Origin: Gemmatimonadales bacterium
Lineage (GTDB): Bacteria > Gemmatimonadota > Gemmatimonadetes > Gemmatimonadales > GWC2-71-9
Assembly: GCA_039794085.1 (NCBI GenBank)
Contig: JBDIWC010000006.1
Location: forward strand, 1 to 64,000
DNA: 64,000 bases
Reading direction: 5' to 3'
Shown here: piece by piece, positions 202-20,391 of the stretch
How positions within the stretch are numbered: the first letter of the stretch is position 1
Layout of the letters: each line of letters starts with the position of its first letter
The notes under the pieces: model-generated
The model's database searches: none
Seen by the model: only the letters and a program-made list of their open reading frames with translations
Told to the model about the DNA's origin: nothing
Program-made: the position numbers and the translations under genes

Positions 202-206
202 CCATC

Positions 207-252
207 TGGCCGTTCTCCCCCGGTCGGGCTACCTTGTGACAGTCCTCTGACA
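207..252 (+). promoter_or_regulatory. Conserved kinase-gene promoter with TGACA-N6-TGACA direct repeat (copy 1)
   Basis: TGGCCG(207)-17 bp-TACCTT(230), then TGACA(237) and TGACA(248); same layout at 6943 and 22537. Confidence 0.7.
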
Positions 253-281
253 TCCTTGCGTCCTGCCCATCCCGGAATCCC

Positions 282-2915
282 GTGAACCCACCGGAACGCC
301 TGAGCGCCGCCCTCGCCGACCGCTATCGCCTCGATCGCGAGCTCGGCGCCGGTGGCATGGCCACCGTCTACCTGGCCGACGACCTCCGCCACGAGCGCAA
401 GGTGGCCCTCAAGGTGCTGCGGCCCGAACTCGCCGCGGTCATCGGCGCCGAGCGGTTCCTCAAGGAGATCAAGGTCACCGCCAACCTGCAGCACCCCCAC
501 ATCCTCGGCCTGATCGACTCCGGCGAGGTGGACGGGCTCCTCTGGTATGCGATGCCGTTCGTCGAGGGGGAATCGCTGCGAGATCGCCTGCACCGCGAGA
601 AGCAGCTGCCGATTCCCGAGGCGGTGCGGATCACCACCGAAGTGGCCGGGGCGCTCGACTATGCCCACCGCCACGGGGTGATCCACCGCGACATCAAGCC
701 CGAGAACATCCTGCTGCACGACGGCAGCGCCCTGGTGGCCGACTTCGGCATCGCGCTGGCGGCCAGCACCGCCGGCACCCGGATGACCGAGACCGGCATG
801 TCGCTTGGCACCCCGCACTACATGAGCCCCGAGCAGGCGATGGGCGAGCGGGAGATCACCGCCCGCAGTGATGTCTATGCCCTGGGCTGCATCACCTACG
901 AAATGTTGACCGGGGATCCGCCATTCACCGGCTCCACGGCACAGGCGATCGTGGCCAAGGTGGTGACCGAACGACCCCACTCGCTCACTTCGCAGCGCCA
1001 CACCATCCCGCCCCACGTCGAGGCGGCCGTGCTCACCGCCCTGGAAAAACTTCCAGCCGACCGTTTTGCCACTGCCGCCGAGTTTGCGGCGGCTCTCGGC
1101 GATCACGCCTACACCACCAAGACGATGGCGGCCGCGTCGGCCAGCTCGCCGGATGGCCGGTGGTGGCGGATGGTGGCTGCCGGGTTGGGCCTCGCGCTGG
1201 CGGTGGCCACGGTCGCGGCGGTGGTCGGGTGGATGCGTCAGACCCCGCCCGGGATGGTGCGCCGGTTCGAGGTGTCGTTGACCGGGGCCTTCCACGACTT
1301 CGCCAACCCGATCGTCTCACCCGATGGCGCCCGGATCATCTACTCCAATACGGAGGGGTCGATCCTGCTCCGGCGCGCCGATGCGCTCGACGCCCGCCCC
1401 ATCCCGGGATCGGAACTGGCCTGGGCCACGGTGTTCTCGCCGGACAGCCGGGAAATCGCCCTCAACACGGGCTTCCCGGGGGCACTCAAGATCATTCCGA
1501 TCGACGGCGGCGCCGTGCGCACGCTGGTGGCGGATTCGACCTATGGCACAGGTCTCGACTGGAGCCCGGACGGCTGGATCTACTATCTGCACGGAGAGCA
1601 CTACGGGCGCGACCTGATGCGCATCCGTGCCTCCGGCGGCGCGCCCGAGTTCGTGGCCCGCCCCGACTCGGCGTCCGACGCGCTGATGTTCCTTTATCCT
1701 CAGGTCCTGCCCGGAGGACGCATTCTGTTGACCATCCAGCCGAAGGTCGGGGATCCGAGGATCGGCATCCTGGACCCGGCCCGTGGTGCCGTGACCATCC
1801 TGGCGGACGGGCTTTTCAGCCGATATGCCCCGACCGGACACCTCATCGTGGCTGGTGTCGACGGCATGCTGCGGGCGGCCCGGCTCGACGCTCGGGCGGG
1901 AACGCTGAAGGGTGCGTTCACCACTGTCGCCGAGGGACTTACGGTTTCTTCCTTCACTGGAGTCAAGTTCTTCACCCTCTCGGACGAAGGTACCCTGGGC
2001 TACCAGAAGGCCGCGGATCCTCACCAGGTGGTGCGCGTGCCTCGAAGCGGCGGGCAGGAGGGGGCCCTCGACCCGGGATGGGAGGGGGTATTCGCCTCGA
2101 CGTCGCTCGCGCCGGATGGTTCCCGAGTGGCGGTCGCCGTCGGGCGGGCGGGGCGTACCGAGTTGTGGGTCCGGTCGCTCGAGAGCGGTGCCATGACCCG
2201 GTTGTCCTCGGGTGGGACGATGAACTACCGGCCGAGCTGGTCGCCCGATGGGAACGAGGTGATCTTTACCTCCGACCAGCGGGGCAAGATCACCACCTAC
2301 CGCGTTCGCGCCGATGGCAGCACCCCGCCCGAGCCGCTGCTGGCGGTGGCCCCCAGCGTGGACGAGGCGGTCTTCTCGCGCGACGGCGCGTGGCTCCTCT
2401 ATCGAGCGGGGTCGGGTGGCAGCCGGGATATCTTTGCCCGGCGGACTGTTGGTGACACGACCGTCCTCACGCTGGTGAATTCCCGGGCGGAGGAGTTCTC
2501 ACCGACCCTCTCGCCCGATGGGCGGTGGCTGGCCTATGCCTCGGATGAAACGGGACAGACCGAGGTCTACGTCCGCCCCTTTCCCGATGCCGGGGCGGCC
2601 AAGTTCACCGTGTCGCGCAACGGGGGCAGCGAGCCGCTGTGGAGTCCCGCAGGCGGTGAGCTGTTCTTCCGCGACGGGAATGAGAACCTCGTGGCGGTCG
2701 GCGTGGCCCCGGGCCACGAGTTCCGGGTCACCTCGACCCGGGTGCTGTTCTCCACCCGCGGGTACGTGGCCGACAACCGTCATCGCAACTACAGCGTTTC
2801 CGCGGATGGTCGCTCGTTCCTGTTCGTCAAGTCCCCTGGCCTGCTTGACGTCTCCACCCACTTGGTAGTCACGCTGAACTGGTTCGAGGAATTGAGGCGG
2901 AAGGTGGGGCAGTGA
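282..2915 (+). CDS. Membrane Ser/Thr protein kinase with TolB/PD40 beta-propeller
   Basis: GAGGMATV, VALK, HRDIKPEN, DFG and SPE motifs; one hydrophobic helix near aa 295-317; many SPDG repeats; C-terminal LNWFEEL. Confidence 0.93.
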   Translation: MNPPERLSAALADRYRLDRELGAGGMATVYLADDLRHERKVALKVLRPELAAVIGAERFLKEIKVTANLQHPHILGLIDSGEVDGLLWYAMPFVEGESLRDRLHREKQLPIPEAVRITTEVAGALDYAHRHGVIHRDIKPENILLHDGSALVADFGIALAASTAGTRMTETGMSLGTPHYMSPEQAMGEREITARSDVYALGCITYEMLTGDPPFTGSTAQAIVAKVVTERPHSLTSQRHTIPPHVEAAVLTALEKLPADRFATAAEFAAALGDHAYTTKTMAAASASSPDGRWWRMVAAGLGLALAVATVAAVVGWMRQTPPGMVRRFEVSLTGAFHDFANPIVSPDGARIIYSNTEGSILLRRADALDARPIPGSELAWATVFSPDSREIALNTGFPGALKIIPIDGGAVRTLVADSTYGTGLDWSPDGWIYYLHGEHYGRDLMRIRASGGAPEFVARPDSASDALMFLYPQVLPGGRILLTIQPKVGDPRIGILDPARGAVTILADGLFSRYAPTGHLIVAGVDGMLRAARLDARAGTLKGAFTTVAEGLTVSSFTGVKFFTLSDEGTLGYQKAADPHQVVRVPRSGGQEGALDPGWEGVFASTSLAPDGSRVAVAVGRAGRTELWVRSLESGAMTRLSSGGTMNYRPSWSPDGNEVIFTSDQRGKITTYRVRADGSTPPEPLLAVAPSVDEAVFSRDGAWLLYRAGSGGSRDIFARRTVGDTTVLTLVNSRAEEFSPTLSPDGRWLAYASDETGQTEVYVRPFPDAGAAKFTVSRNGGSEPLWSPAGGELFFRDGNENLVAVGVAPGHEFRVTSTRVLFSTRGYVADNRHRNYSVSADGRSFLFVKSPGLLDVSTHLVVTLNWFEELRRKVGQ

Positions 2916-2994
2916 GCGACACCATGCACTTCGCCGAAGCGTATGGCGTAACTCGCAAGCGTGACTTTGGATTTGCGACAATCGGGGCGAGATA

Positions 2995-3183
2995 GTGGAG
3001 ATGGTGATCGAGATCAAGCGGTCGACGGCGCCGACCGTCTCGAAGGGGTTCCACATCGCCCGTGCCGATCTCACACCGCGCGAGGCCTTCGTCGTGCATG
3101 GCGGCGCGGAAACCTGGCCGATGGGAGGCGGGGTGACCGCCATTTCTGTGGCTGACCTGGCCACGAGGCTGGCCGCATCGTGA
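2995..3183 (+). pseudogene. C-terminal remnant of an AAA ATPase (DUF4143-type)
   Basis: IEIKRSTAPTVSKGFHIARADL...FVVHGG..WP resembles the C-terminal nuclease-like tail of AAA_14/DUF4143 proteins; the ATPase part is absent. Confidence 0.6.
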
Positions 3184-3243
3184 CGCTGCCGACGGGATTG
3201 CTTTCCAGGTGGAAGTGGATAACTTCCATATATGGAGGTGTAT

Positions 3244-3495
3244 ATGGAACTGACCAAGAAAACCACCATTCTCTTCTCCCCTGAGCTCCACCGCCGGTTG
3301 ACCGATCTCGCTGCTCGCCGGGGCCGAAGCCTCGGCGATCTGGTGCGGGAAGCATGCGAAGTCCACTATGGAGTCGTGGGTGGACGCGATCAGGTGGCCG
3401 CAGTGACCGCCCTGGCCCGGTTGAACCTGCCGGTGGGCACCCCGGAGGCGATGAAGCGGGAATCGGTGGCCGATCCGGATGCGCTGCTGCCATGA
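3244..3495 (+). CDS. Ribbon-helix-helix antitoxin (VapB-like)
   Basis: KKTTILFSPELHRRLTDLAARRGRSLGDLVREA RHH pattern; ATGA overlap with PIN gene; TCCATATATGGA palindrome at 3225-3236. Confidence 0.85.
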   Translation: MELTKKTTILFSPELHRRLTDLAARRGRSLGDLVREACEVHYGVVGGRDQVAAVTALARLNLPVGTPEAMKRESVADPDALLP

Positions 3496-3896
3496 TCCTG
3501 ATCGACACGAACGTGATCATGTACGCGGCTGGTTCTGCCCATCCCCACAAGGCGCCGAGCGTGGGATTGCTCGAACGGGTCGCCACGGGAGAGGTGCAGG
3601 CCACGATCGACGCCGAGGTACTGCAGGAGATCCTGCACCGCTACCGGGCCATCCACCGCTGGGAGGAGGGGAAGCAGGTCTACGACCTGACTCGCCAGCT
3701 GTTCCCGATGGTCGTCCCGGTGACGGCGGAGATCCTGGATCGCACCCGAATGCTTCTGGATACCGAAACGCACGTCATGGCGCGAGATGCGCTGCATGCG
3801 GCGGTCGTGATCGAGGAACAACTCACGGGAGTGTGCAGCTATGATCGAGATTTCGACCGGATCGCAGGGCTGGTCCGCACGGAGCCGGGCGCATGA
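3492..3896 (+). CDS. vapC: VapC PIN-domain toxin
   Basis: MILIDTN...LQEIL...RDALHAA...SYDRDF acidic PIN residues. Confidence 0.9.
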
Positions 3897-5064
3897 GCCC
3901 GCCTAACCGCCTGGCCGCGGCCCTCGCCGACCGCTACACCATCCTCCGCGAGATCGGACAGGGCGGCATGGCCACCGCGTACCTCGCCCATGACCTCAGG
4001 CACGACCGCAAGGTGGCCATCAAGGTCTTGAAGATCCTGCTGCACGACGGGCGGCCGATGGTGATGGACTTCGGAATTGCCCTGGCGGTGAGCGCGGCGG
4101 CGGGCGCATGACCGAGACGGGCCTGACTCTCGGCACACCGGACTAGATGAGCCCCCAGCAGGCCACCGCCGAGAAGGAGATCACCGCCCGGAGCGACATC
4201 TACTCGCTGGGCAGCGTGCTTTACGAGATGCTGACGGGGGAGCCACCCCACAAGGGCACCTCGGCGCAGGCGACGGGCGCCGCGCCGCGATGGGACTCCG
4301 GGAGGAGGGCCAGGATGGCATCTGGATCCATCATCTCGAGGAAGGGACCCTCTCCCGGCTCACCTTCGACGGCACCTCGGTATGGCGGCCGGTGTGGAGT
4401 GGTGACGGGTTGCGGGTCGGGTTCGTCTCCGATCGTCTGAGTACGGATCTCACTCGATCACTCTGGACCGTGCCCGCGGATCGAAGCCGCGAACCGGAGT
4501 TGTTGGCCTCGGACGATCGTCACGCCCAGGAACTTACCTGGTCGGCGGACGGCCGGGCCGCGGCGTATCGCGTGGGCTTCACCGACGGCGCGACCCGGCG
4601 CGACATCTTCGTGCTGCGCTCCCCCCAGGACTCCGTGCCCCGACCCTTCATCGCCACACCCGCCGACGAGCAGCACCCGAAGCTCTCTGACCCGACGGGC
4701 GATGGCTGGCGTACGTCTCCGACGAATCAGGGAAGCGCGAGGTGCATGTCCGGCCCTTCCCCGAGGGTCCGGGTCTCTGGCAGGCGTCGGCGGAGGAAAC
4801 GAACCGCTCTGGCGGCGCGACGGCCTGGAGCTCTTCTACCGCGACGCCATGCGAAACCTGGTTGCGGTCCCCGTGACCGCCGGGGAAGGATTCGCGACCG
4901 GAGCCCCCCGGACCCTGTTCTCCGCCCTGCCCCACTACTCCGACGGCAACAGCACATCCTACGACGTGCCCGTCGACGGCACCCGCTTCCTGATGATCTC
5001 GCAACCGATTGATCAGACCCTGGTGGTCGTGCTCAACTGGATCGAGGAGTTGCGCGAGCGGTGA
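3893..5064 (+). pseudogene. Decayed Ser/Thr kinase-TolB propeller gene
   Basis: VAIKVLK joined directly to ILLHDG (HRD loop deleted); TAG at 4144 inside GTP.*MSP; several frameshifts; ends VVLNWIEEL like the paralogues. Confidence 0.88.
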
Positions 5065-5095
5065 GGAAAGGGCTCAAACCCGGCGGCCCTTGAGA

Positions 5096-5124
5096 TTGCC
5101 CGGTAGTCCGTGATGTTGTATGTT
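5096..5124 (+). promoter_or_regulatory. sigma70-type leaderless promoter
   Basis: TTGCCC-17-TATGTT with ATG 7 nt downstream and no Shine-Dalgarno. Confidence 0.55.
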
Positions 5125-5131
5125 TTTCCAT

Positions 5132-5356
5132 ATGAAGACTACGCTTATTCTTCCCGACCACCTGGTTCGGCAGTTGAAGCATCGCGCTGCGGAGCAGGGT
5201 ACCACCCTGTCGGCAGTGGTGGCCGAGGCGCTCCGCCGCGGTCTGGAGCCCAACCCGGCAATCGAGCTACCTCCCCTGCCGTCCTACCACATGGGTCCAC
5301 CCCTCGTGGATGTCGCCGATCGCGATGCCCTCTACCGCGCGATGGAAGAGTCCTGA
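5132..5356 (+). CDS. VapB-like antitoxin
   Basis: MKTTLILPDHLVRQLKHRAAEQGTTLSAVVAEALRRG RHH-like sequence; directly upstream of a PIN gene. Confidence 0.85.
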   Translation: MKTTLILPDHLVRQLKHRAAEQGTTLSAVVAEALRRGLEPNPAIELPPLPSYHMGPPLVDVADRDALYRAMEES

Positions 5357-5358
5357 CC

Positions 5359-5790
5359 ATGTTCGTGGTGGACACCAACCTGCTGCTCTATGCGGTCAAT
5401 CCCGACGCGGAGGACCACCCCAAGGCCGCCGTACTCCTCGAGGAGTGGCGGTCGGGAGACCGATCGTGGTTTCTGACCTGGGGGATCGTTTACGAGTTTC
5501 TGCGAGTCAGCACCCATAGCCGGGTGTTCGCTCGACCGCTCACCTTGCGGCAAGCCACCGAGTGGATGGGGCTCCTTTTGACCGCGCCCCGGGCCGGCGT
5601 GCTGGTGCCCTCGGAGCGGCACCCCGCCGTCCTCGCGACCCTGGCCGGGGAGTATCCGCGACTTCGCGGCAACGTCCTCCATGATCTGCACACTGCGGCC
5701 CTGATGAGGGAGCATGGCATCACCGAGATCCGAACCGCGGACACCGATTTCCACCAGTTCGGGTTCCTCACGGTCACCAACCCGTTGTGA
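5359..5790 (+). CDS. vapC: VapC PIN-domain toxin
   Basis: MFVVDTNLL...YEFLRV.TH...GNVLHDLHTAALMREHG...TADTDF. Confidence 0.9.
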   Translation: MFVVDTNLLLYAVNPDAEDHPKAAVLLEEWRSGDRSWFLTWGIVYEFLRVSTHSRVFARPLTLRQATEWMGLLLTAPRAGVLVPSERHPAVLATLAGEYPRLRGNVLHDLHTAALMREHGITEIRTADTDFHQFGFLTVTNPL

Positions 5791-6175
5791 CGCCGGGGAT
5801 GTAGTCCGAATCCGGCACCCGGGGGACATCGGGGTTGAGCGCATCACGGCACGCCGTGCCGCCGTCCGAATGGAGCATCTCGCTCCGGGAACGACACCCG
5901 TCCCGTCACCGGCGCCGGAAGACCATCCGGTTTCCGCTCGGAAAGTGCAGCAGGAGCCGGTCTCCCTCCAGGCGAAGATCGGTGGGTTCCGTCGGAGCCC
6001 CTTCGACCGGGCGGGCGATCATGCGAAGGTCGGTGGCGGGCGATCCCGGCATCGCCGCCCCGGAGGACAGGTTGAACAGGTGAGTGAACACGACCTGTCC
6101 CTCCGAATGATCGCCAGGAGCGCATGCGACAGGTACCCTGAACGGCCAATCTCATTGGGGATTTGGAGATATGGA

Positions 6176-6204
6176 TTGACAGGCTCTTTCACGATGGTCA
6201 TTAT
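6176..6204 (+). promoter_or_regulatory. sigma70-type leaderless promoter
   Basis: TTGACA-17-CATTAT with ATG 6 nt downstream. Confidence 0.6.
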
Positions 6205-6210
6205 AGCCTG

Positions 6211-6504
6211 ATGACAACTGCTTCCGTTTCCGAGGCCAAGAACCAGCTCAGTGCCCTGCTCCGGCTCGTCCAGGCCGGACAATCCGTGCTCATCACCGAC
6301 CGGGGCATCCCGGTGGCCCGGCTCGAGCCGGTGAGGCTCGGCGTCGGTATCTCACCGGGAGTTCTCAGTCTCGCCCAACAGGGATTGGTTCAGCTCCCCG
6401 AAAGCGAGCCCACTGCCGACTGGCTCGACCTCCCTCGGCCCGCCGTGACCTCGGGGCCCTGCGGCTCCGCCCTCCTCCTGGAGGAGCGGCGCGAGGGTCG
6501 ATGA
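6211..6504 (+). CDS. Phd/YefM-family antitoxin
   Basis: SVSEAKNQLSALLRLVQAGQSVLITDRGIPVARL is the Phd signature. Confidence 0.9.
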   Translation: MTTASVSEAKNQLSALLRLVQAGQSVLITDRGIPVARLEPVRLGVGISPGVLSLAQQGLVQLPESEPTADWLDLPRPAVTSGPCGSALLLEERREGR

Positions 6505-6935
6505 GGTTCTGGGATTCCTCCGCCCTCGTCCCCCTCCTGGCGCCGGAGCCCGGGACCGAGCGCATGATGACCTTGATGCGCGAGGATCCGGCGGCGGCAG
6601 TCTGGTGGACCACCCCGGTCGAATGCGCTTCCGCGCTGGCGCGACTGACTCGCGATAAACGGATGTCGCGCGACGATGCCACCCTGGCCGCCGGGCTCCT
6701 CGCCACGGCCGCGCGGGGGTGGAGCGTGGTTCCGCCCACCGACCCCGTGCGCCACCAGGCGATGCGACTGCTCCGCCTTCATCCCCTGCGCGCCGCCGAC
6801 GCGCTCCAACTCGCCGCCGCGCTGGTTCTCGCCGAGCACGACCCGCGCACCCTCCCCTTCGTCACCCTGGACGACCGGTTGGCGCTGGCCGCGGAGCAGG
6901 AGGGGTTTGACGTGATGGGAGGAACCCCGGACTGA
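6501..6935 (+). CDS. vapC: VapC PIN-domain toxin
   Basis: FWDSSALV...VECASAL...LRAADALQLAAA...FVTLDDRL; ATGA overlap. Confidence 0.9.
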   Translation: MRFWDSSALVPLLAPEPGTERMMTLMREDPAAAVWWTTPVECASALARLTRDKRMSRDDATLAAGLLATAARGWSVVPPTDPVRHQAMRLLRLHPLRAADALQLAAALVLAEHDPRTLPFVTLDDRLALAAEQEGFDVMGGTPD

Positions 6936-6942
6936 GGGCTTC

Positions 6943-6988
6943 TGGCCGTTCTCCTCCCGGTCGGGTAACTTGTGACAGTCTCCTGACA
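6943..6988 (+). promoter_or_regulatory. Conserved kinase-gene promoter (copy 2)
   Basis: TGGCCG-17-TAACTT, then TGACA(6973) and TGACA(6984). Confidence 0.7.
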
Positions 6989-7017
6989 GTCAACCTTTCG
7001 CTCATTCCCGGAGCAGT

Positions 7018-7135
7018 GTGAACCCACTGGAACGACTGCGCGCGGCCCTCGCCGACCGCTACGTAGTCGAGCGCGAGCTCGGTCAGGACGGGATCGCCAT
7101 GGTCTTCCTCGCGGAGGACGGGAAGCGCAAACGCC
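7018..7135 (+). pseudogene. Truncated kinase 5' end
   Basis: MNPLERLRAALADRYVVERELGQDGIAMVFLAED matches the paralogue N-termini and then diverges. Confidence 0.8.
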
Positions 7136-7185
7136 GGGCGCCTGGCGTCTGGCCGAGCCTCTCCAGCGACAGTAGATTCGACACC

Positions 7186-7458
7186 ATGAATAGGGATGTG
7201 TTGCCGGGAGCCGAGTTGGTCGAGCAGGGCCTCCGCGATCTCGACGACCATGCCGAGACCGTCGAATCGCTGCTCGTCTCGCTCGGCGCTCCCGGCCTGC
7301 GCACGCTGGGACTCCGCGTGCCCGAGCCATGGGCGGAGCCCGAACTCCGGCTCTACCGGCTGCTGGCGGAGCGGCACGGTGCCGGAGCCCATGCCCGGTA
7401 CAACGCCCTCCTGCGTCGGCTGGTGAGCTTCCAGCGTGCGAGCGCATGCGCGAAGTAG
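7186..7458 (+). CDS. Small hypothetical protein, putative partner of DUF6036 nucleotidyltransferase
   Basis: LPGAELVEQGLRDL...YNALLRRLVSF; own TGGCCG-17-TAGATT promoter 7 nt before ATG; overlaps the next gene. Confidence 0.65.
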   Translation: MNRDVLPGAELVEQGLRDLDDHAETVESLLVSLGAPGLRTLGLRVPEPWAEPELRLYRLLAERHGAGAHARYNALLRRLVSFQRASACAK

Positions 7459-7967
7459 CGGATCAGGCGCGGATCGAGGCTTTTCTCACGGCGCTGGCGC
7501 GCGAGGCGACGGCCGACCTCGACGTCTATCTCGTCGGGGGCACTTCGGCCGTTCTGGTGGGGTGGCGCCCGACCACGATCGACATCGACCTGGTGATGCG
7601 CCCGGAATCGGACGCCCTGCTTCGGACGATTCCCGTACTCAAGGAGCGGCTCCGGGTGAACGTCGAGCTCGCCTCGCCCGACCAGTTCATTCCGGTGCCT
7701 CCCGGCTGGGAGCAGCGCAGCCCGGTCATCGTCCGCATCGGGAAGGTCACCTATCATCACTATGACTTCACCGCCCAGGCGCTCGCCAAGATCGAGCGTG
7801 GGCACACCCGCGACCTGGCCGACGTCGAGGCAATGCGGGCAAGGGGACTGATCACCGGTGCGGAGGTGCGGCGCCAGTTCTCCCTGCTGGAGCCGCAGCT
7901 GTATCGCTTTCCCGCCATTGACCCTCCCTCGTTCCGCCGCGCCGTGGACGCGATCTTTCCGCCATGA
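7446..7967 (+). CDS. DUF6036-family nucleotidyltransferase
   Basis: YLVGG...RPTTIDID polymerase-beta NTase motif; KIERGHTRDLAD tail. Confidence 0.8.
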   Translation: MREVADQARIEAFLTALAREATADLDVYLVGGTSAVLVGWRPTTIDIDLVMRPESDALLRTIPVLKERLRVNVELASPDQFIPVPPGWEQRSPVIVRIGKVTYHHYDFTAQALAKIERGHTRDLADVEAMRARGLITGAEVRRQFSLLEPQLYRFPAIDPPSFRRAVDAIFPP

Positions 7968-10654
7968 TCGACCGACTTGAATCGGCCCTCGCCGACCGCT
8001 ATTCACTCGTGCGCGAGCTCGGCCAGGGGGGCATGGCCACCGTCTACCTCGCGGAAGACCTCAAACACAAGCGCAAGGTGGCGATCAAGGTCCTCAAGCC
8101 CGAACTCGCCGCCGTCCTCGGCGCCGAGCGCTTCGTGCAGGAGATCACCACCACCGCGGCGCTGCAGCATCCCCACATCCTGCCGCTGTTCGATTCCGGC
8201 ACCGCCGACGGGTTCCTGTTCTATGTCATGCCCTATATCCAGGGCGAGACGCTGCGGAGCAAGCTCGACCGAGAGACCCAGCTCGGCATCGAGGAGGCGG
8301 TCAAGATCACGGTCGAAGTGGCCGACGCCCTGGACTACGCTCACAGCCAGGGTGTGGTGCACCGCGACATCAAGCCCGAGAACATCCTGCTCCACAACGG
8401 CCGCCCGATGGTGGCGGATTTCGGCATCGCCCTGGCGCTGAGCGCCGCGGCCGGCGGCCGGATGACCGAGACCGGCCTCTCGCTTGGCACGCCGCACTAC
8501 ATGAGCCCGGAGCAGGCGACGGCCGAAAAGGAGATCACCGCCCGGAGCGACATCTACTCGTTGGGCAGCGTCCTCTACGAGATGCTCACCGGCAGTCCAC
8601 CGCATGTGGGCGCCTCGGCGCAGCAGATCATCATGAAGATCGTGACCGAGGAGGCCGCTTCCATCACTCGGCTCCGCCGGTCGGTGCCCCCCAATGTCGT
8701 GGCCGCCGTCGCCACGTCCCTGGAAAAGCTCCCCGCGGATCGATTCGAGAGCGCCAAGGCCTTTGCCGAGGCCCTGGCCCATCCCGAGTACCGCGGCACC
8801 ACGACCCTCTCCTCCGCGAGCCAGGGCAGTCGAAGGATGGCGCTCGCAGGATGGGGTGTGGCCGGCCTGCTCTTCGTCGCCCTCGCCTCAACCTGGTTCC
8901 GTCCCGCCCCGCGGGAGCCCGCCACACGCCGCCTCGCGGTTGCTCTGCCCGAGGATGCCGCATACCAGGCACTCGGTACCGCGGAACTGGCTCTCGCTCC
9001 CGACGGGAGCCGGTTCGTCTACGTGGGTGGTCCCTCACTTCGTAATTCGTCCCTGGTGGTGCAGGAGCGGGATCAGATCGGTGGCCGTGCTCTTCCCGGT
9101 ACCGCGGCCGCCATGTCACCGGCCTTCTCACCCGATGGACGCCGCATCGCATTCCGCGACGCCCGCCAGGGCTCCCTGAACGTTCTCTCGCTGGATGGAT
9201 CGTCTCCCGTGACGCTGCGGGCGGCGGAAACCGGCGGGGCCGCGTTTGGAGTGGCCTGGTCCGATGACGGGCACATCTACTACCCCTCCCGGGAGGGGAC
9301 ACGGGGCATTCTCTTTCGCGTGTCCGAAAATGGCGGAACACCGGAACCGATCACGTCGGGTGACAGCACACTGGGCACGGTCAGCCATATCATGCCCTTC
9401 GCCCTCCCCGAAGGGCGCGGGGTCCTCTACACCGATTGGCACGGCCCAACGCGGGGCAACGACAGTTGGATCGTGGCGTGGAACGCCCGGAACCGGCGCA
9501 CTGTCCGGATCATCCAGGGTCTCCAGGCCTGGTATCTGGCACCGGGGTTCCTCCTCGTCCTGCGACCCAACGGCTCCGCCGTGGCGCTGCCGTTCGACAT
9601 CCGGAATCTCGTGGTGACCGGCCCCGAGACAGTGGTGCTCGACCAGATCGCGATCAGTACCGCCGGCACCGCCAATCTCGCCGTGTCGTCCACCGGTCTG
9701 CTGATGTATCGCTCCGGCGCCGCTCAGGCGATCCAGCGGCTCGTGCGCCCTGTCCAAGTGGCCCGATCCGGGGAGGAACGGGTCCTCGATCCGCAGTGGA
9801 CCTATACCCCGGGGTACAATGGGGGCCTCAGCCTTTCGCCAGATGACACCCGCCTCGCGGTCACCATCCATGGCGACCCGGTGGGGGACATCTGGATCAA
9901 GGATGTGGTCCGCGGTCCCCTGACGCGGGTGACCTTCGGCAATTCGATCGTCTACCGGCCGGCCTGGATGCCGGATGGCGCCTCGTTGAGCTACGTGTTC
10001 GAGGAGGGAGCGGCCAGCGGGGTTCTCCGGCGCCAAGCCGATGGCGGGGGAGAGGTGGATACGATCGTCACGTCACCCCACACCATCGCGGAAGCGGTCT
10101 GGTCGGGGGATGGCTCCTGGCTGGTCTACCGGATCACGATCCCGAGCCGCGACATCCATGCCCTCCAGCCGGGAACCGACACCGCCGGCATCCCGGTGGT
10201 GGCGACCCCCGACTTCGATGAACGGGCGCCGACTCTCTCGCCCGATGGCCGGTGGCTGGCCTACCAGTCGGATGAGTCGGGGCGGGACGAGATCTACATC
10301 CGTCCCTTTCCCGAGGCCGGGGCGGGCCGCCGCCAGGTCTCCGTGGCCGGAGGCGCGGAACCCCTGTGGGCTCACAGCGGACGCGAGTTGTTCTATCGGT
10401 CTCCCGAGGGCCGGATGGTCGTGGTGCCGGTGTCCACTTCTCCCGCTCTCGCGACGGGCCGGGCGCAGCCCCTTTTCGCCGACACCGCCTATCTGCGCGC
10501 CCCCAGCTACCGCGGGTACGACGTGACGAGCGATGACCGGGCCTTCGTGATGCTGCGCATGCTCCCGGAGGACACGCGCCGGTCGTCGGGCCAGCTGATC
10601 CTGGTCGAAAACTGGTTCACCGAACTCCGGACCCGCCTGCGGGGACGACCCTGA
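7964..10654 (+). CDS. Membrane Ser/Thr protein kinase with TolB/PD40 beta-propeller
   Basis: Intact VAIK, HRDIKPEN and DFG; TM helix; SPDG repeats; ENWFTEL C-terminus; ATGA overlap with NTase stop. Confidence 0.93.
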   Translation: MIDRLESALADRYSLVRELGQGGMATVYLAEDLKHKRKVAIKVLKPELAAVLGAERFVQEITTTAALQHPHILPLFDSGTADGFLFYVMPYIQGETLRSKLDRETQLGIEEAVKITVEVADALDYAHSQGVVHRDIKPENILLHNGRPMVADFGIALALSAAAGGRMTETGLSLGTPHYMSPEQATAEKEITARSDIYSLGSVLYEMLTGSPPHVGASAQQIIMKIVTEEAASITRLRRSVPPNVVAAVATSLEKLPADRFESAKAFAEALAHPEYRGTTTLSSASQGSRRMALAGWGVAGLLFVALASTWFRPAPREPATRRLAVALPEDAAYQALGTAELALAPDGSRFVYVGGPSLRNSSLVVQERDQIGGRALPGTAAAMSPAFSPDGRRIAFRDARQGSLNVLSLDGSSPVTLRAAETGGAAFGVAWSDDGHIYYPSREGTRGILFRVSENGGTPEPITSGDSTLGTVSHIMPFALPEGRGVLYTDWHGPTRGNDSWIVAWNARNRRTVRIIQGLQAWYLAPGFLLVLRPNGSAVALPFDIRNLVVTGPETVVLDQIAISTAGTANLAVSSTGLLMYRSGAAQAIQRLVRPVQVARSGEERVLDPQWTYTPGYNGGLSLSPDDTRLAVTIHGDPVGDIWIKDVVRGPLTRVTFGNSIVYRPAWMPDGASLSYVFEEGAASGVLRRQADGGGEVDTIVTSPHTIAEAVWSGDGSWLVYRITIPSRDIHALQPGTDTAGIPVVATPDFDERAPTLSPDGRWLAYQSDESGRDEIYIRPFPEAGAGRRQVSVAGGAEPLWAHSGRELFYRSPEGRMVVVPVSTSPALATGRAQPLFADTAYLRAPSYRGYDVTSDDRAFVMLRMLPEDTRRSSGQLILVENWFTELRTRLRGRP

Positions 10655-10726
10655 GGCCCGCCCTGCGACTTGCCGTCGTGTCGAACCATCAGGAACAACT
10701 CGCGAAATTGACGGACAGCCCATGCC

Positions 10727-10828
10727 CGTCATTCCCGCGCACGCGGGAATCCATTCTCCTCCTCCAGCCCTCATGGCCATGGATCCCCGCTCCCCGATTT
10801 CGCGGGGACAAGCTTCCCGGGGGTGACG
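10727..10828. repeat. REP-like palindromic doublet (GTCATTCCCGC...GCGGGAATCCA)
   Basis: Two imperfect inverted arms; homologous arms at 35553-35578 and 35907-35952. Confidence 0.75.
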
Positions 10829-10859
10829 TTGGGCCAGAGATTCCTTGGGTTCCACTGAT

Positions 10860-11063
10860 ATGAGCCACCCACGCCACGACTGGCCGATCCGGATCTTCCC
10901 CCTGGACCAGGAGCCGAGTGGCGATCTGTCCGCCACGACCACCATCGAGGAGCGCTTGGCGCTCGTGACAATGCTCTCGGGAGCGCGGGTGGAAGCTCAC
11001 GGGGAAGCCCTTTCCAGCATATTCCCGCTCCACGATGCCGGGACGGGTCATCCGACGGCATGA
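10860..11063 (+). pseudogene. Orphan or degenerate small protein of the type found upstream of nucleotidyltransferases
   Basis: WPIRIFPLDQEPSGDLSATTTIEERLA resembles such partner proteins (from recall); no partner gene follows. Confidence 0.4.
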
Positions 11064-11070
11064 ATGACGA

Positions 11071-13663: not shown

Positions 13664-13984
13664 ATGAACAAGCGTCATGACAGCAACGCATCTGGTCGGC
13701 GCACCAACCGGGGCGCCGAGCCGGTGCAGGTTTACCTGGAGGCCCCCGACCGGGAGCGCCTGAACCGCTTGACCGCCGAATTGGATGCCACCAAGTCGGA
13801 CGTGCTCCGGCGGGGACTGGCGGCTCTCGAATCCCTCACCCAGCGCCATTCCGCATCCCGGGCAGCGGGGGCCTCCCCCCTTCCCCTTCCGACCTTCCGA
13901 GGGGAGGGGCTCCAACCGGGGGTTGACCTCGATGACACGGCGAGTCTCCTCGACCTCATGACTGAGGGCGATGCGCCTGGTTGA
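13664..13984 (+). CDS. RHH/CopG antitoxin
   Basis: PVQVYL...TKSDVLRRGL; C-terminal LPTFRGEGLQPGVDLDD of VapB type. Confidence 0.82.
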   Translation: MNKRHDSNASGRRTNRGAEPVQVYLEAPDRERLNRLTAELDATKSDVLRRGLAALESLTQRHSASRAAGASPLPLPTFRGEGLQPGVDLDDTASLLDLMTEGDAPG

Positions 13985-14402
13985 TGTGAACGTCCTCGTG
14001 TATGCCTTCCGCGAGGATGCCCCGGGCCACGTGGAATACCGCGCCTGGCTCGAAGGGCTGATCTCTTCGGACGAGGCGTACGCCGTCTCCGATCATGTGC
14101 TGGCGGGATTCCTTCGGATTGTGACGCATCCTCGGATCTTCCACCCTCCGGCGCCACTCGAGCTGGCGATCGCCTTCGCCACCGCCTTCCGCGACGCACC
14201 CAACGCCGTTCCGGTGTTCCCGCGGGCCCGGCATTGGGAGATCTTTTGCCGACTGCTCCGGCAGGCGGGGGCCCGGGGCAACCTGGTTCCGGATGCGTGG
14301 CTCGCCGCCCTCGCCCTCGAGCAGGGATGCGAGTTCATCACCACGGACCGGGACTTCGCGCGCTTCCCCACCCTGCGGTGGCGTCACCCGCTCACGGGGT
14401 GA
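13971..14402 (+). CDS. vapC: VapC PIN-domain toxin
   Basis: LVDVNVLVYA...FLRIVTHP...GNLVPDAWLAALA...TTDRDF. Confidence 0.92.
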   Translation: MRLVDVNVLVYAFREDAPGHVEYRAWLEGLISSDEAYAVSDHVLAGFLRIVTHPRIFHPPAPLELAIAFATAFRDAPNAVPVFPRARHWEIFCRLLRQAGARGNLVPDAWLAALALEQGCEFITTDRDFARFPTLRWRHPLTG

Positions 14403-14589
14403 GGGAGACGCCTCGGACGGGGAGCCCCTGATCAAACGGACGGAGGACCAATCCGGCCAAATTATTAATAAGAGGTGATGCCACCTTCGCGGTGATGCTT
14501 TCGGGGCTCATCCGGGTTCGTGTAGGTGAGGGTGTGTGAGCGGAACTTCAACCCGCCGTTTCCCGGGGCTCTTCGGCCTTCTTGGGGGG

Positions 14590-14892
14590 GATTCTGGACT
14601 GAGTGGGGGGGCTCCGGTGGCCAGGCGGGCGGGGGAATAGCCACAAGAGGCACAAGAGGCACAAGAAACACGAGATCGAGGAGGGTGGCTCCGCCTCCAC
14701 CACACCGACTCCACCCGGGACCGGCCTGGGCAGGATTCCATCTGAGTCATCCGTGCCATCCGCAGTCTCTTCCCAAGGAGGTGTGGCGTTCCGGTCGGCG
14801 GCTTTGTGCCTTTTGTGCTTTTGTGGTTGGCTTTCGGGGTGAGGGGAAGCGCTCGGGCTGAACACGAGCCCATGCCAAAGCCTGAAGAGCCT
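14590..14892 (+). repeat. Dispersed composite non-coding element (CACAAGAGG arms), copy A
   Basis: GCCACAAGAGGCACAAGAGGCACAAG ... CTTTGTGCCTTTTGTGCTTTTGTGG; flanks align by eye with the reverse complement of 35583-35800. Confidence 0.7.
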
Positions 14893-14982
14893 CCATTCTG
14901 AGGGCCGTGTGCGGACGGCCCTGATCGCCCGTAACGGTTTCTCCGTATACCTTTCCCCCGACCCCGCATATGGAGCCCTGCC

Positions 14983-16305
14983 ATGACCCTCTCCCGCCGC
15001 TCGTTCCTGGGAACGGCTGGCGTCGCCGGCCTTGCCCTCGCCTCGGCGCGCTGTGCCCCCGCTCCGGACGCCCGCGATTCCACCCCTCTTCCCCCGCTCG
15101 ACCGTCCCACCGGTTCACCGGAAGCCGTCGCCCGGGACGAGGCCTACTGGCGGCGCGTCGCGGCCCACTACCGGGTGTCCTCCGAGATCACCAACCTGGA
15201 GGCGGGCTATTTCGGCATGATGGCGGCGCCGGTGCTGGCGGAGTATCACCGGCAGATCGACCGGGTCAACCTCGAGAGTTCCCGGTACGCCCGCGGGGCG
15301 TGGGGAGAGGAATCCGCCGGGGCCCGCGAGCGTCTGGCCGGTTTTCTCGGAGCCGCACCGGAGGAGCTGGTGTTCACCCGCAACGCGACCGAGGCGCTCC
15401 AGCGTCTCATCGTGCAGTACAACAAGCTGGCCCCCGGGGATCAGGTGATGTGCGCCGACCTGGACTACGGGGCGATGCAGTTCGCCATGGATGCCCTCGC
15501 CGAGCTTCGGGGTGTCACGGTGGTACGGATCGAGTTTCCGGAACCGGCCACCCGGGACGCCGTCGTGGAGATGTACGCCGAGGCGCTCCGGACTCACCCC
15601 CGGGTTCGGCTGCTCCTCCTCACCCATCTCAACAACAAGACCGGCCTGATCATCCCGACCCGGGAGATCGTGGCGATGGCCCGGGAGCGGGGGGCCGACA
15701 CCATCGTCGACGCCGCCCACTCCTTCGGTCAGTGCGACCTGACGCTCCGGGACATCGGCGCCGATTTCGTGGGCCTGAACCTGCACAAGTGGCTCGGCGC
15801 CCCGATCGGTGTCGGAGCGATGTACATCAAGGCCGATCGCCTGCCGGACATCGACCGGATGCTGGGGGACGACGGACCCCTCGACCGGATCGAGAGCCGG
15901 ATGCACACCGGCACCGCCAACTTCGCCACCTATCTGACAGTTCCCGCTGCCCTGGCCTTTCATGAGTCGGTGGGGCCGGCGTACAAGGCGGCCCGGGTGC
16001 GCCACCTCCGCGACCTCTGGGTCGGGGCCGTGCGCGGAACGCCGGGCATCGACCTTCTGACTCCGGACGATGCGGATCTCGTGGCCGCCATCACCTCGTT
16101 CCGGCTTCACGGCCGGACCGGGAAGGAGGAGAACCAGGCGATCGTGAGGGAGCTGTTCGAACAGCACCGGCTCTTCACGGTGTGGCGCACGGGACTCTCC
16201 CGGGGGGATTGCGTACGGGTGACCCCGGCCCTCTACAACACCCCGGCAGATGCCGAGCGTCTCGCCGTGGCGCTCCGGGGAATGGCTGGTCGAGGGGCCG
16301 TGTAG
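14983..16305 (+). CDS. Tat-exported class V PLP aminotransferase (isopenicillin epimerase-like)
   Basis: SRRSFL twin-arginine motif; TRNATEA, DAAHS and NLHKWL (PLP lysine). Confidence 0.88.
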   Translation: MTLSRRSFLGTAGVAGLALASARCAPAPDARDSTPLPPLDRPTGSPEAVARDEAYWRRVAAHYRVSSEITNLEAGYFGMMAAPVLAEYHRQIDRVNLESSRYARGAWGEESAGARERLAGFLGAAPEELVFTRNATEALQRLIVQYNKLAPGDQVMCADLDYGAMQFAMDALAELRGVTVVRIEFPEPATRDAVVEMYAEALRTHPRVRLLLLTHLNNKTGLIIPTREIVAMARERGADTIVDAAHSFGQCDLTLRDIGADFVGLNLHKWLGAPIGVGAMYIKADRLPDIDRMLGDDGPLDRIESRMHTGTANFATYLTVPAALAFHESVGPAYKAARVRHLRDLWVGAVRGTPGIDLLTPDDADLVAAITSFRLHGRTGKEENQAIVRELFEQHRLFTVWRTGLSRGDCVRVTPALYNTPADAERLAVALRGMAGRGAV

Positions 16306-16458
16306 TCCCTCACGGACAGGATCGGACACAAGACGGCAACGATTTTTTGGGAGACGCCCGGAAACCCTCACGGGCAGTCTGTTTGCCGGCGCATGGGAAG
16401 GCATCCAACTTGAGGCATCTGGTGCATTCGCGTCGCGGAGCGCCGTGACCAGGCGATT

Positions 16459-16514
16459 GGTGTTTCCCGGGGCTGACGCCCCTTGCTCGGCCCGGGGAGG
16501 TGGCTCGCGCCACC
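16459..16514 (+). repeat. 56-bp dispersed palindromic repeat, copy 1
   Basis: 51/56 identical to 25406-25461 by manual alignment. Confidence 0.8.
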
Positions 16515-16657
16515 AAAAACAGCGACGACACCGGCCGTGTGAACGGCCTCCCGCCGCCGAGCCCGGGGCGAAAGCCCCGGGGAACCCCTGCGAAACGCCG
16601 ACGCGCCTCTCTGGTTCCGGCTCTGCCGGCTCAGGGGATCTGTAATCGATCGCCACC

Positions 16658-16697
16658 TTGTGCAGGTAATACGAATGTGTTACCGTGTGTAACACAT
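16658..16697 (+). promoter_or_regulatory. TA promoter with operator inverted repeat
   Basis: TTGTGC-17-TACCGT; ATGTGTTAC-N5-GTAACACAT perfect 9-bp inverted repeat overlapping -10 and the start codon. Confidence 0.7.
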
Positions 16698-16986
16698 GGC
16701 AGACGAACACCTGACCCTCCGGCTCCCCACCCACCTCGCCCGGGCCCTGACCCGATGGGCCGACGCGCGCGACCTCCCCAAGTCCCGGGTGGTTCGGGAA
16801 GCGATCGCCCGGTACCTCGACGCGCCCACCGGAGGAGACCGGGGACCAGCCGGCTTGACCGCCCGAACCCTGGGCCAACGGTGGGCGGCACTCCCGCGAC
16901 TCCATCCGGACGAAGCCGCCAACTTCGCCGACGATCTCTCCGCGAGCGCCGCCGAGATGCCACCACCGTCCCCGCCGTGGGAGTGA
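16696..16986 (+). CDS. RHH antitoxin
   Basis: LTLRLP...KSRVVREAIARYL; GTGA overlap with PIN gene. Confidence 0.82.
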   Translation: MADEHLTLRLPTHLARALTRWADARDLPKSRVVREAIARYLDAPTGGDRGPAGLTARTLGQRWAALPRLHPDEAANFADDLSASAAEMPPPSPPWE

Positions 16987-17393
16987 TTCTCGACACCTCG
17001 GTTCTCCTCGCGGCCGAGCGTGGTGCCCTCCGCTTTGAAGCGATGCTGGAAGAGTTGGGTGATGTCGGGGTAGGCATGGCGGCGGTCACAGCCTCCGAGC
17101 TGCTGCACGGTTGCCTCCGGGCCGCTCACCCTGGCGTTCGAGCCCGTCGGTTCGCCTTTGTGGAGGGTCTGCTCGATACCATCCCGGTCCTTCCCTTCAG
17201 TCTGGCGGACGCCCGGCAACATGCGCAGGTCTGGGCTCATCTTGCGCCAGCCGGTTCTTTGATCGGGGCTCACGATCTGTTGATTGCCGCCACCGCCCTG
17301 GCTCGGGGCCACCGGGTGGCCACCCTCAACCGGCGCGAGTTCGGCCGGGTTCCCGGTCTGCACCTGGTCCCGCTGGGGCCTTTTCTTTCCTGA
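16983..17393 (+). CDS. vapC: VapC PIN-domain toxin
   Basis: ILDTSVL...SELLHG...IGAHDLLIAATA...TLNRREF. Confidence 0.9.
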   Translation: MILDTSVLLAAERGALRFEAMLEELGDVGVGMAAVTASELLHGCLRAAHPGVRARRFAFVEGLLDTIPVLPFSLADARQHAQVWAHLAPAGSLIGAHDLLIAATALARGHRVATLNRREFGRVPGLHLVPLGPFLS

Positions 17394-17463
17394 TCCTTGC
17401 CATCGTTCGGCGATGGACGATACGTTCATTCACCTGTCCGGTTCTCCTTTTTTGGAGCCACGC

Positions 17464-19125
17464 ATGCGCCTGTCCTTCCTCACCCTCCCCCTCCTCGTTG
17501 CCGCCTGTTCCCCCCAGGGTCCTGACGAGGGAACTCGATCCGACGACGGCACCGAGAATCTCCTCGCTGCCTACACCACGGTCCGGCTCGACGCCGACCT
17601 GAGCGGGCTCACCGATTCGGCCCGTCGCATGCTTCCGCTCCTGATCGAAGCCGCGCGGGAGATGGATGAGATCTACTGGCTCGAGGTGTCCGGACCTTCG
17701 GACAGCGTGCTCTCTGCCATGCCCACGCCGACCCTGCGGCGGTTCGCCGAGATCAATTACGGCCCCTGGGACCGGCTCAACGGCAACCAGCCCTTCGTGT
17801 CCGAGGTCGGAGCCATGCCCCTCGGCGCCAACTTCTACCCCCACGACATCACCACGGCGGAATTCGATTCCGCGGCACGCGCCGCTCCCGATGGCGGGGC
17901 TGCCTTGCGCAGTCTGTACACTCTGGTCCGCCGGGACGGCCAGGGACGTCTGACCGCGGTGCCCTACCGGGTGGCGTTTCGCCCCCAGGTGGGGCGGGCG
18001 GCGGCTCGGCTGCGAGAGGCCGCGCTCCTGGCTCAGGATGCCGGCCTCCGGCGCTACCTCGAGCTCCGCGCCGAGGCGCTGCTGAGCGATGACTATCAGC
18101 CCAGTGACCTGGCGTGGATGGACATGAAGACCAACCCGATCGATGTCGTCATCGGCCCGATCGAGACCTACGACGACCAGTTGTACGGGGCCAAGGCGGC
18201 GCATGAGGCGTACGTGCTGGTCAAGGACCAGGTCTGGAGCGATCGGTTGAGCCGGTATGCCGCGCTGCTTCCGTCGCTGCAGCGCGGGCTCCCCGTGCCG
18301 GACGCCTACAAGCGGGAGACGCCGGGAACCGATTCCGATCTCAACGCCTACGACGTGCTCTACTATGCCGGCCAGGCCAACGCCGGATCGAAGACGATCG
18401 CCATCAACCTCCCCAACGACGAGGAGGTTCAGCTGGCCAAGGGAGCCCGCCGGCTCCAGCTCAAGAACGCGGTGCGCGCCAAGTTCGACCAGATCCTCCT
18501 GCCGATCGCGGATCTGCTCATCGCGCCCGACCAGCGGGAGTACCTCTCGTTCGACGCCTTCTTCGAGAACACGATGTTCCACGAGGTGGCCCACGGGCTC
18601 GGAATCAAGAACACCGTGACCGGCGGGCGCACGGTGCGGGAGGCACTGCAGGAGCAGGCCTCGTCGCTCGAGGAGGGGAAGGCCGATGTCCTGGGCCTCC
18701 ACATGATCACCGCCCTGACGGACCGGGGCGAGCTGGGGGAGAAGGACATCCGGACCAACCAGGTCACCTTTCTGGCGGGCATCTTCCGGTCGGTCCGGTT
18801 CGGTGCCGCGAGCGCGCACGGCCGGGCCAACGTGGCTCGGTTCAACTACTTCGAGGAGATGGGCGCCTTTACCCGCGATTCCACCACCGGAACCTATCGG
18901 GTGAACTTCGACCGGATGCGCCTCGCCACCGACTCGCTGTCGGCCAGGATCCTGCGATTCCAGGGAGACGGGGACCTCGACGGAGTGCGGGCGTGGATGG
19001 ACTCCGTGAGCACCATCCGGGCCACCCTCCAGGCCGATCTCGACCGGCTCGCCACGGCGGGGATCCCGGTGGACATCGTCTTCGAGCAGGGGCCCGAGGT
19101 CCTGGGGCTCCCGGCGGCCCGCTGA
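17464..19125 (+). CDS. Zn-dependent peptidase lipoprotein (dipeptidyl-peptidase III / M49-like)
   Basis: Lipobox LVAAC; HEVAHG and EEGKAD Zn-ligand motifs; AINLPND. Confidence 0.87.
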   Translation: MRLSFLTLPLLVAACSPQGPDEGTRSDDGTENLLAAYTTVRLDADLSGLTDSARRMLPLLIEAAREMDEIYWLEVSGPSDSVLSAMPTPTLRRFAEINYGPWDRLNGNQPFVSEVGAMPLGANFYPHDITTAEFDSAARAAPDGGAALRSLYTLVRRDGQGRLTAVPYRVAFRPQVGRAAARLREAALLAQDAGLRRYLELRAEALLSDDYQPSDLAWMDMKTNPIDVVIGPIETYDDQLYGAKAAHEAYVLVKDQVWSDRLSRYAALLPSLQRGLPVPDAYKRETPGTDSDLNAYDVLYYAGQANAGSKTIAINLPNDEEVQLAKGARRLQLKNAVRAKFDQILLPIADLLIAPDQREYLSFDAFFENTMFHEVAHGLGIKNTVTGGRTVREALQEQASSLEEGKADVLGLHMITALTDRGELGEKDIRTNQVTFLAGIFRSVRFGAASAHGRANVARFNYFEEMGAFTRDSTTGTYRVNFDRMRLATDSLSARILRFQGDGDLDGVRAWMDSVSTIRATLQADLDRLATAGIPVDIVFEQGPEVLGLPAAR

Positions 19126-19171
19126 ACCCGAGTCCGCATCGGCCGTCGACCTCTCCGCGCGGCCCCCGGAA

Positions 19172-19930: not shown

Positions 19931-19973
19931 AGGCGGGAGGCGAGTGTCACTTCATTATTGGCCGGATCAAAGA

Positions 19974-20381: not shown

Positions 20382-20391
20382 CGCGAGACTC

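Follow-up and report, generated by a model that had tools for sequence, protein, structure and literature searches.

A decaying tandem array of predicted receptor Ser/Thr kinase genes interleaved with toxin-antitoxin modules in a Gemmatimonadales bacterium

The first 64,000 nucleotides of contig JBDIWC010000006.1 from a Gemmatimonadales bacterium (assembly GCA_039794085.1), hereafter called the window, begin with an array in which genes for receptor-like Ser/Thr kinases alternate with toxin-antitoxin (TA) modules. A first-pass annotation had described the order of these genes and their placement on a single strand, and both are as described there (Table 1). We favor the explanation, at a probability of roughly 65%, that the locus encodes predicted membrane receptor Ser/Thr kinases in a tandem array undergoing decay, and that its TA modules are likely selfish passengers held there by recombination through the kinase-coding heads of the genes. 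In the genome that we designate G000 (4.16 Mb, 115 contigs), the window forms the beginning of contig C6, and a similarly built second array, in which propeller and TPR kinases alternate with TA pairs, occupies positions 254-13109 of contig C5.

In every intact gene of the family, a Hanks kinase is followed by a hydrophobic helix and then by a variable C-terminal domain that is either a double propeller or a TPR domain. The catalytic motifs are intact, with VAxK and HRDxKPEN present in 85 of 87 family members and DFG in all 87. Judged by hydropathy only, a 19-residue segment scoring at least 1.6 is found in 76 of the 87 linkers versus 5 of the 87 propellers. K1, K4 and K5 match Pkinase with E values of 1e-48 to 1e-49 and have helix hydropathies of 1.8-2.4 (2.39 for K1), and by domain order they are receptor-type Hanks Ser/Thr kinases with a predicted membrane helix. 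Members of the family (E of 1e-100 or better) reside in at least 62 of the 71 genomes of the order, counting the unpublished G074, and reach at least 35 copies in a genome; G028 carries 22 within 90 kb. PP2C phosphatase genes are found within or next to the arrays of four genomes (G010, G014, G050 and G076; loci L037, L041, L069 and L071), two of them in tandem in G014, which fits ordinary signaling, and the phosphatases in these arrays may reverse the kinase signal. All four PP2C matches of G000 are on contigs other than those of its arrays.

The sensor had been annotated as a propeller, which holds, and the structural model refines it to a predicted double propeller. The K1 C-terminal model, built from 83 sequences (predicted local distance difference test score 91.9), is a 560-residue all-beta structure whose two halves each match single propellers. 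Its second propeller is closest to TolB (Z 28.3, root-mean-square deviation 2.6, 259 residues), and its first to NHL propellers including that of PknD (1rwi; Z 19.6, deviation 2.9, 236 residues). The fold search with this model returned generic propellers only and gave no clue to a ligand. The domain layout, together with similar kinases described in the accessible part of PMC11032199, suggests that the sensor is periplasmic.

Kinase heads and sensors have separate histories. The kinase domains of K1, K4 and K5 are 65-78% identical and their propellers 34-39%, which agrees with the close and divergent parts named in the first-pass annotation; its view of a C-terminal NW motif as the sole conserved part of the propellers does not hold, as K1 and K4 additionally share a 97-nucleotide (nt) stretch of propeller DNA that is 84% identical. 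We compared trees of the two domains for 87 kinase-propeller proteins from 14 genomes, reduced to 83 by dropping four near-duplicates of G068. Only 7 of 80 splits are common to the kinase and propeller trees, and 27 of the 39 propeller splits with support of at least 0.95 conflict with kinase splits of equal support. As a control, we compared trees of two 266-column propeller parts, which have 34 of 80 splits in common and contradict each other at 3, while the kinase tree shares 5 or 7 with either part; Spearman correlations are likewise 0.70 between propeller halves and 0.20-0.25 between the kinase and either half. This conflict, which the first-pass annotation had anticipated, indicates that kinase heads are swapped between genes whose sensors differ. 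For example, two neighboring genes in G015 have kinase DNA that is 97-100% identical over about 700 nt, and past that stretch they are unrelated, with propeller proteins that are 23% identical. Similarly, K4 and its paralog at C5:7347 are 90% identical in the kinase and 24% in the propeller. Orthologs of K1 in G028 (96% and 67%) and of K5 in the congener G001 (98% and 92%) are closer in both parts.

Comparison with G001 reveals how such an array turns over. The order there is kinase, TA, stub, Phd-PIN, stub, ParE behind a ribbon-helix-helix (RHH) antitoxin, stub, nucleotidyltransferase pair, and K4. Because the first G001 stub consists of the leader of K1 and its ten opening codons (131 nt, 93% identical), K1, TA1, K2 and TA2 are missing from that position; a TA1 copy (83%) is on another G001 contig, where it also overlaps a kinase start. 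Conversely, the window is without the RHH-ParE pair that two stubs flank in G001. Window positions 6150-7119 align with G001 3010-3979 and positions 7052-11070 with G001 4793-8794, and the stub in the window is chimeric, its 5′ portion matching one G001 stub and its 3′ portion the next, with identity switching about 43 nt into the stub. A crossover between two stubs probably removed RHH-ParE from the window, although the direction of the event is a matter of interpretation. Contig C5 of G000 keeps an antitoxin 86% identical to that of the lost pair, which could have rendered the loss harmless. The head of window K4 likewise carries a short tract that matches the G001 stub and not G001 K4. The only repeats between the modules of the window are kinase DNA and its leader.

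Decay is equally evident. The pieces of K2 align to codons ~6-46, 137-228, 646-667 and 703-881 of an intact G028 paralog, and the fifth kinase, at 22615, is preceded by a decayed TA module, as first annotated, whose Phd-PIN ortholog is intact in G001. Assembly error was considered as the source of the broken genes and rejected: contigs of public runs X1 and X2, which derive from one sample that is possibly the source of the window, match the broken stretch with 0-1 differences, and run X5, from another study, carries the G001-type layout. Several gene breaks in G068 may be sequencing errors. In both G000 and G001, intact TA modules persist beside gutted kinases. Birth-and-death turnover through kinase DNA, as initially proposed, is thus borne out by the tree conflict and the stub crossover. 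The accompanying idea that the TA modules stabilize the array is not, because the kinases beside intact TA modules are gutted in both genomes and one TA module has itself been deleted.

TA1, TA2 and TA3 have the VapBC type II layout, with a PIN toxin behind a small DNA-binding antitoxin gene and with toxicity that is predicted. Their PIN domains and the Phd domain exceed the Pfam cut-offs and the RHH matches fall below them; the acidic PIN residues look intact at the positions where we presume them to lie. In G000, a kinase head is the next gene after 3 of the 43 PIN genes, and a TA-like module, whether intact or decayed, immediately precedes five of the eight intact family kinases. PIN pairs in the 26-kb island also precede two ordinary genes, so G000 alone cannot separate a preference for kinases from a local hotspot. 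Among 21 other well-assembled genomes, nine PIN genes lie within 2 kb of a kinase, and six of the 137 are directly upstream, on the same strand, of one of 196 kinases, in four genomes. A uniform null (0.10 expected) is too lenient for this count and G015 had been noticed before testing, so it is the comparisons with control genes and between lineages that carry the adjacency claim.

Both comparisons support the enrichment that the first-pass annotation had asked about. In ten of the 21 genomes, PIN genes are directly upstream of 6 of 121 kinases versus none of 171 serine-hydrolase and amidohydrolase genes (P 0.005), and with G015 removed the counts are 4 of 110 versus 0 of 157 (P 0.028). These PIN-upstream counts are undercounts, since the search missed at least the G028 ortholog of TA1. 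We then counted, for each TA lineage, the homologous loci in which a co-oriented kinase head lies no more than 250 nt downstream, using all matches for TA1 and TA2, 30 of 40 for the nucleotidyltransferase, 30 of 64 for TA3, and 30 of 54 and 30 of 34 for two control PIN lineages from elsewhere in G000. A kinase head follows 9 of 21 TA1 loci, 2 of 23 TA2 loci, 7 of 29 nucleotidyltransferase loci and 6 of 29 TA3 loci. Excluding G000 and G001, these become 8 of 20, 2 of 22, 6 of 28 and 5 of 28, and the pooled 21 of 98 stands against 1 of 58 for the controls among the matches listed (P 0.0003). The genomes are kin rather than independent, and all of these P values therefore overstate significance. 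In a wider, partly overlapping set with groups assigned by record title, a kinase follows TA1 in 7 of 44 loci from Gemmatimonadota and in none of 36 loci from other groups. Some TA lineages occupy this position in front of kinases in three families of the order. In three genomes, a pair encoding an RHH-fused protein and a DUF6036-like nucleotidyltransferase also lies next to kinase arrays, on the strand opposite to them (L001:14507-15531, L036:2878-3900 and L315:6936-7970).

The evidence says that this association is not a fixed partnership. TA1 precedes TPR kinases as well as propeller kinases 45-79% identical to those of the window, and the slot before a kinase is filled elsewhere by VapBC modules with several antitoxin types, by ParE, by Doc and by nucleotidyltransferase pairs. 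G000 and G028 share the overlap of TA1 with a kinase start and differ in upstream context and sensor, and the large arrays of G062, G076, G010 and G014 have no TA module between kinases in the stretches read.

The leader motif is another recurrent element. It consists of a TGACA direct repeat spaced by one helical turn, and the full motif occurs before four kinase starts in G000 (K1, the stub, K5 and C5:9974). Copies of this kinase-specific leader were recorded at the three window positions of Table 1 and at L001:10004, and it is restricted to G000 and G001 among the loci scanned. An Rfam search with it gave no match; read backwards, it has what we take to be a resemblance to a PhoB-type box. 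K2, K4 and two C5 kinases are without the leader and have a TA module upstream. A sigma-70 scan found one site, at the TA3 promoter, versus 1.2 expected. Run X14 is labeled as RNA and yields long contigs of flat depth, hence it was rejected as evidence of expression.

If the TA modules are selfish passengers, the packing of the array may explain where they sit. Kinase genes that overlap start to stop would leave few harmless insertion points, and with 4-nt overlaps at 25 of 54 kinase-kinase junctions, insertions are presumably rare. A TA operon that had once landed before a kinase start would remain before some head after each crossover in kinase DNA, while the crossover would swap the sensor behind it. 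Unequal crossovers or imported DNA could then move the unit of sensor, TA module and next head without an integrase. Once sensors became useless, their kinase genes would be gutted by internal deletions, and TA pairs may outlast them because TA loss is probably toxic, leaving a pattern of stub, TA, stub, TA. For leaderless kinases whose start overlaps a toxin stop, the TA promoter would drive transcription, probably as a mere side effect. According to the accessible part of PMC13617665, addictive TA modules cluster in high-turnover spots whose neighbors are not conserved.

A functional coupling would give the arrangement another meaning. The kinases would phosphorylate antitoxins or toxins, or would be induced from the TA promoter when the antitoxin is degraded, and a swappable sensor could then trigger growth arrest or abortive defense. 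This is suggested by the leaderless kinases behind TA modules and by the overlaps of toxin stops with kinase starts, which measure 4 nt at 4 of 13 junctions listed and 8 and 13 nt at two more. TA1 antitoxins also keep Thr or Ser in the DNA-binding strand, although Thr is common in the strand of RHH proteins. There are precedents in the accessible parts of two reports, wherein VapB phosphomimetics weaken VapC binding (PMC11160731) and PfkA/B phosphorylate PfiA (PMC13048266). We nevertheless consider coupling unlikely, because a PIN gene immediately precedes only 6 of the 196 kinases, itself an undercount, the four large arrays named above are without TA modules between their kinases in the stretches read, TA modules persist next to dead stubs, and TA1 occurs without kinases in other phyla. 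The related suggestion that the TA modules are effectors of a sensing or defense system fares no better, given that no kinase or sensor is consistently paired with a TA module, that most arrays are without PIN genes, and that defense-library matches reflect a generic kinase domain. Specifically, matches of PD-T4-6, MADS, BREX PglW and Mokosh to family kinases, PADLOC matches among them, span essentially the kinase domain only, with NCBIfam scores far under the cut-offs, and 14 small or neighboring proteins scanned with PADLOC gave no match. A more elaborate version, which we regard as quite improbable, is a modular sense-and-arrest locus, in which head recombination would connect dozens of different outer sensors to one shared type of kinase, and this kinase would phosphorylate antitoxins transcribed along with it, as an integrase-free combinatorial immune-receptor locus in Gemmatimonadota. 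Were it true, a cell could rewire which cue (phage attack, predator contact or envelope damage) releases the toxin.

Two other explanations were weighed. The arrays might simply be dispensable, high-turnover DNA that gathers any small mobile gene without a tether to heads, as 40 of 43 PIN genes in G000 have no kinase head downstream and three PIN pairs of the window sit amid ordinary genes. In addition, 7 of the 9 PIN genes of G068 fall within 30 kb (G068:C4:447150-477217) on a contig with no family kinase match, a second type of TA hotspot. We give this explanation little credence, since the linkage is oriented and lineage-specific (21 of 98 versus 1 of 58 among the matches listed), six of nine PIN genes near kinases are directly upstream on the same strand, other multi-copy accessory genes score 0 of 171, and two of the seemingly ordinary pairs have orthologs between kinases in G028 and G068. 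The cassette-like alternation on one strand, and the presence of TA cassettes in chromosomal integrons in the accessible part of PMC13108822, could instead point to an integron-like or transposon-driven system whose own recombinase inserts TA modules at kinase starts. This we deem highly improbable: none of the ten tyrosine-recombinase (PF00589) matches of the genome is on C5 or C6, a simple attC-like pattern finds no match in positions 1-26000, and kinase DNA and its leader are the sole inter-module repeats. Both arrays touch contig ends, and a recombinase could therefore lie beyond them.

Several observations weigh against the selfish-passenger explanation. TA2 taken by itself has no significant linkage to kinases (P 0.18). 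TA1 precedes members of a distant kinase clade (45-50% identity; L084 and L093) whose DNA homology is weak, so that simple homologous recombination explains its presence there less well. The overlap of TA1 with a kinase has been retained across genera, with about 78% protein identity, a long time for a mere passenger. On the TA1 tree, the labels linked and unlinked require 5 changes where shuffled labels require 7.6 on average, with 24 of 500 shuffles as low, and the tree settles on neither a single nor several origins of linkage. Finally, one TA module has been lost and two have decayed in G000, which means that addiction is not absolute.

Table 1. Features of the kinase and TA island (window coordinates)
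Position	Strand	Feature	Support or remark
205-252	+	Leader copy 1, conserved, TGACA-N6-TGACA repeat; likely promoter/operator of kinase genes	Motif
282-2915	+	K1: Hanks kinase, predicted transmembrane helix (1170-1226), double beta-propeller	Pkinase E 7e-49, PD40
2995-3183	+	62-residue reading frame, possible tail of DUF4143-type ATPase gene	
3244-3495	+	TA1 antitoxin, RHH	Antitox_RHH E 1.6e-4, under curated cut-off
3492-3896	+	TA1 toxin, PIN/VapC	PIN E 9e-16; stop overlaps K2 start (ATGA)
3893-5064	+	K2: kinase-propeller remnant with internal deletions, frameshifts, stops	Three-frame translation
5120-5790	+	TA2: RHH-like antitoxin (5120-5356), VapC toxin (5359-5790)	PIN; TIGR00028 87 bits, cut-off 73.6
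6211-6935	+	TA3: Phd antitoxin (6211-6504), PIN toxin (6501-6935)	PhdYeFM E 2e-9, PIN E 3e-7
6941-7140	+	Leader copy 2 (6941-6988) and kinase stub from 7018, ~40 codons	
7189-7967	+	Nucleotidyltransferase pair: 89-residue partner (7189-7458), DUF6036 protein (7446-7967)	DUF6036 E 4e-6, over cut-off
7964-10654	+	K4: kinase, predicted transmembrane helix (8837-8893), double propeller	
13664-14402	+	RHH-PIN pair amid ordinary genes	G028 ortholog sits between two kinases
16696-17393	+	RHH-PIN pair amid ordinary genes	G068 ortholog sits between two kinases
19974-20700	-	Phd-like and PIN_3 pair	PIN_3 E 1e-22
21838-22277	+	Decayed Phd-PIN pair upstream of K5	81-87% DNA match to intact G001 pair, with deletions
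22535-25293	+	Leader copy 3 (22535-22582) and K5 (22615-25293): kinase, predicted transmembrane helix (23515-23571), double propeller	

Some of the smaller genes merit comment. The 62-residue reading frame behind K1 had been called an ATPase remnant, and this has little behind it: a Pfam scan gave no match, and there is a weak Atlas lead to DUF4143 (score 0.86, 27% of cluster members). The TA1 antitoxin is kept in 19 homologous loci, and the closest named relatives of the TA1 toxin are from Gemmatimonadales. The kinase stub is fused in frame to the 89-residue partner of the nucleotidyltransferase, a protein that matches no family yet is kept upstream of the nucleotidyltransferase in most homologous loci. 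The DUF6036 gene stop overlaps the K4 start, and the pair is a putative TA module of the AbiEii/MenT-like kind. Positions 13664-21101 hold three further PIN pairs and a lone antitoxin between non-kinase genes. The C5 array includes one RHH-PIN and one AbiEii-like pair and begins with an intact RHH antitoxin next to a dead ParE, a case of toxin-first decay. Joining C5 and C6 into one array was rejected, as the contigs do not overlap and both ends are genome-wide repeats.

Other sequences in and around the arrays were recorded in passing. Short, partly palindromic repeats of several families lie at 10706-10851, 14805-14891, 16300-16640 and 25336-25470 and at both contig ends; these families have dozens of copies genome-wide, many at contig ends, and the gene at C3:130901 resembles by eye an IS200/REP-associated transposase. 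Within the repeats after K4 is a 72-residue reading frame (10845-11063), which in G001 is followed by a 126-residue nucleotidyltransferase-like gene (L033:8784-9164) that is absent in the window. Three near-paralogous 185-residue genes at 31188-32410 and 37403-37963 look by eye like Uma2-type endonucleases, and L043 has a similar gene in front of a kinase. In G013, a probable restriction-modification cluster with a PD-(D/E)XK nuclease and a methylase-like gene (L036:8621-12610) lies directly upstream of the kinase array.

The selfish-passenger explanation would offer a recombinase-free route by which TA modules become fixed to, and travel with, a signaling gene family, with the paralogous head as the recombination site. 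The arrays also provide a natural test of whether TA modules protect their neighbors or only themselves, and here the neighbors decay. In addition, TA1 and the nucleotidyltransferase pair supply kinase-antitoxin candidates for asking, beyond mycobacteria and Pf phages, whether receptor kinases control TA toxins. Repeat-sensor receptor kinases have been described before, as have TA clusters in high-turnover DNA, and we found no description of kinase arrays with TA modules in the literature searched, although supplements or subscription papers may hold one.

The mycobacterial kinase PknD is a single-copy protein with one NHL-type propeller. The order of kinase, transmembrane helix and extracellular six-bladed propeller in M. 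tuberculosis PknD (PDB 1rwi) is the same as here, whereas the present kinases have two propellers instead of one NHL propeller, are PD40 rather than NHL in Pfam, and reach at least 35 copies. Another comparison is with Planctomycetota and myxobacteria (PMC11032199), whose membrane Ser/Thr kinases end in WD40 or TPR arrays, and for these the accessible text describes a cytoplasmic Pkinase, a single transmembrane helix, a predicted periplasmic propeller or TPR domain, and a lineage-specific expansion put down to duplication and recombination. Unlike those, our kinases carry a double propeller of PD40/TolB-like type and lie in tandem on the chromosome, with heads that have been exchanged and TA modules in between; the main text of that report does not use the word toxin.

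The TA side of the system also has parallels, each as given in the accessible part of its source. TA cassettes of sedentary chromosomal integrons (PMC13108822) are likewise interspersed in a shuffled, co-oriented array from which excision removes them, but C5 and C6 have no integrase match, a simple pattern scan of window positions 1-26000 gave no attC-like match, and the recombining repeat is a coding kinase head. Ser/Thr kinases and type II TA modules of the same broad families meet in the phosphorylated VapB of M. tuberculosis (PMC11160731) and in PfkA/B-PfiAT (PMC13048266); those cases are biochemically shown and act in trans, whereas the present association is known from gene adjacency. 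The selfish TA clusters of Photorhabdus (PMC13617665) share clustering, patchy distribution, non-conserved neighbors and toxin-first decay. They differ in being tied to transposases and integrases, while the lineages described here are tied to the start of a signaling gene family.

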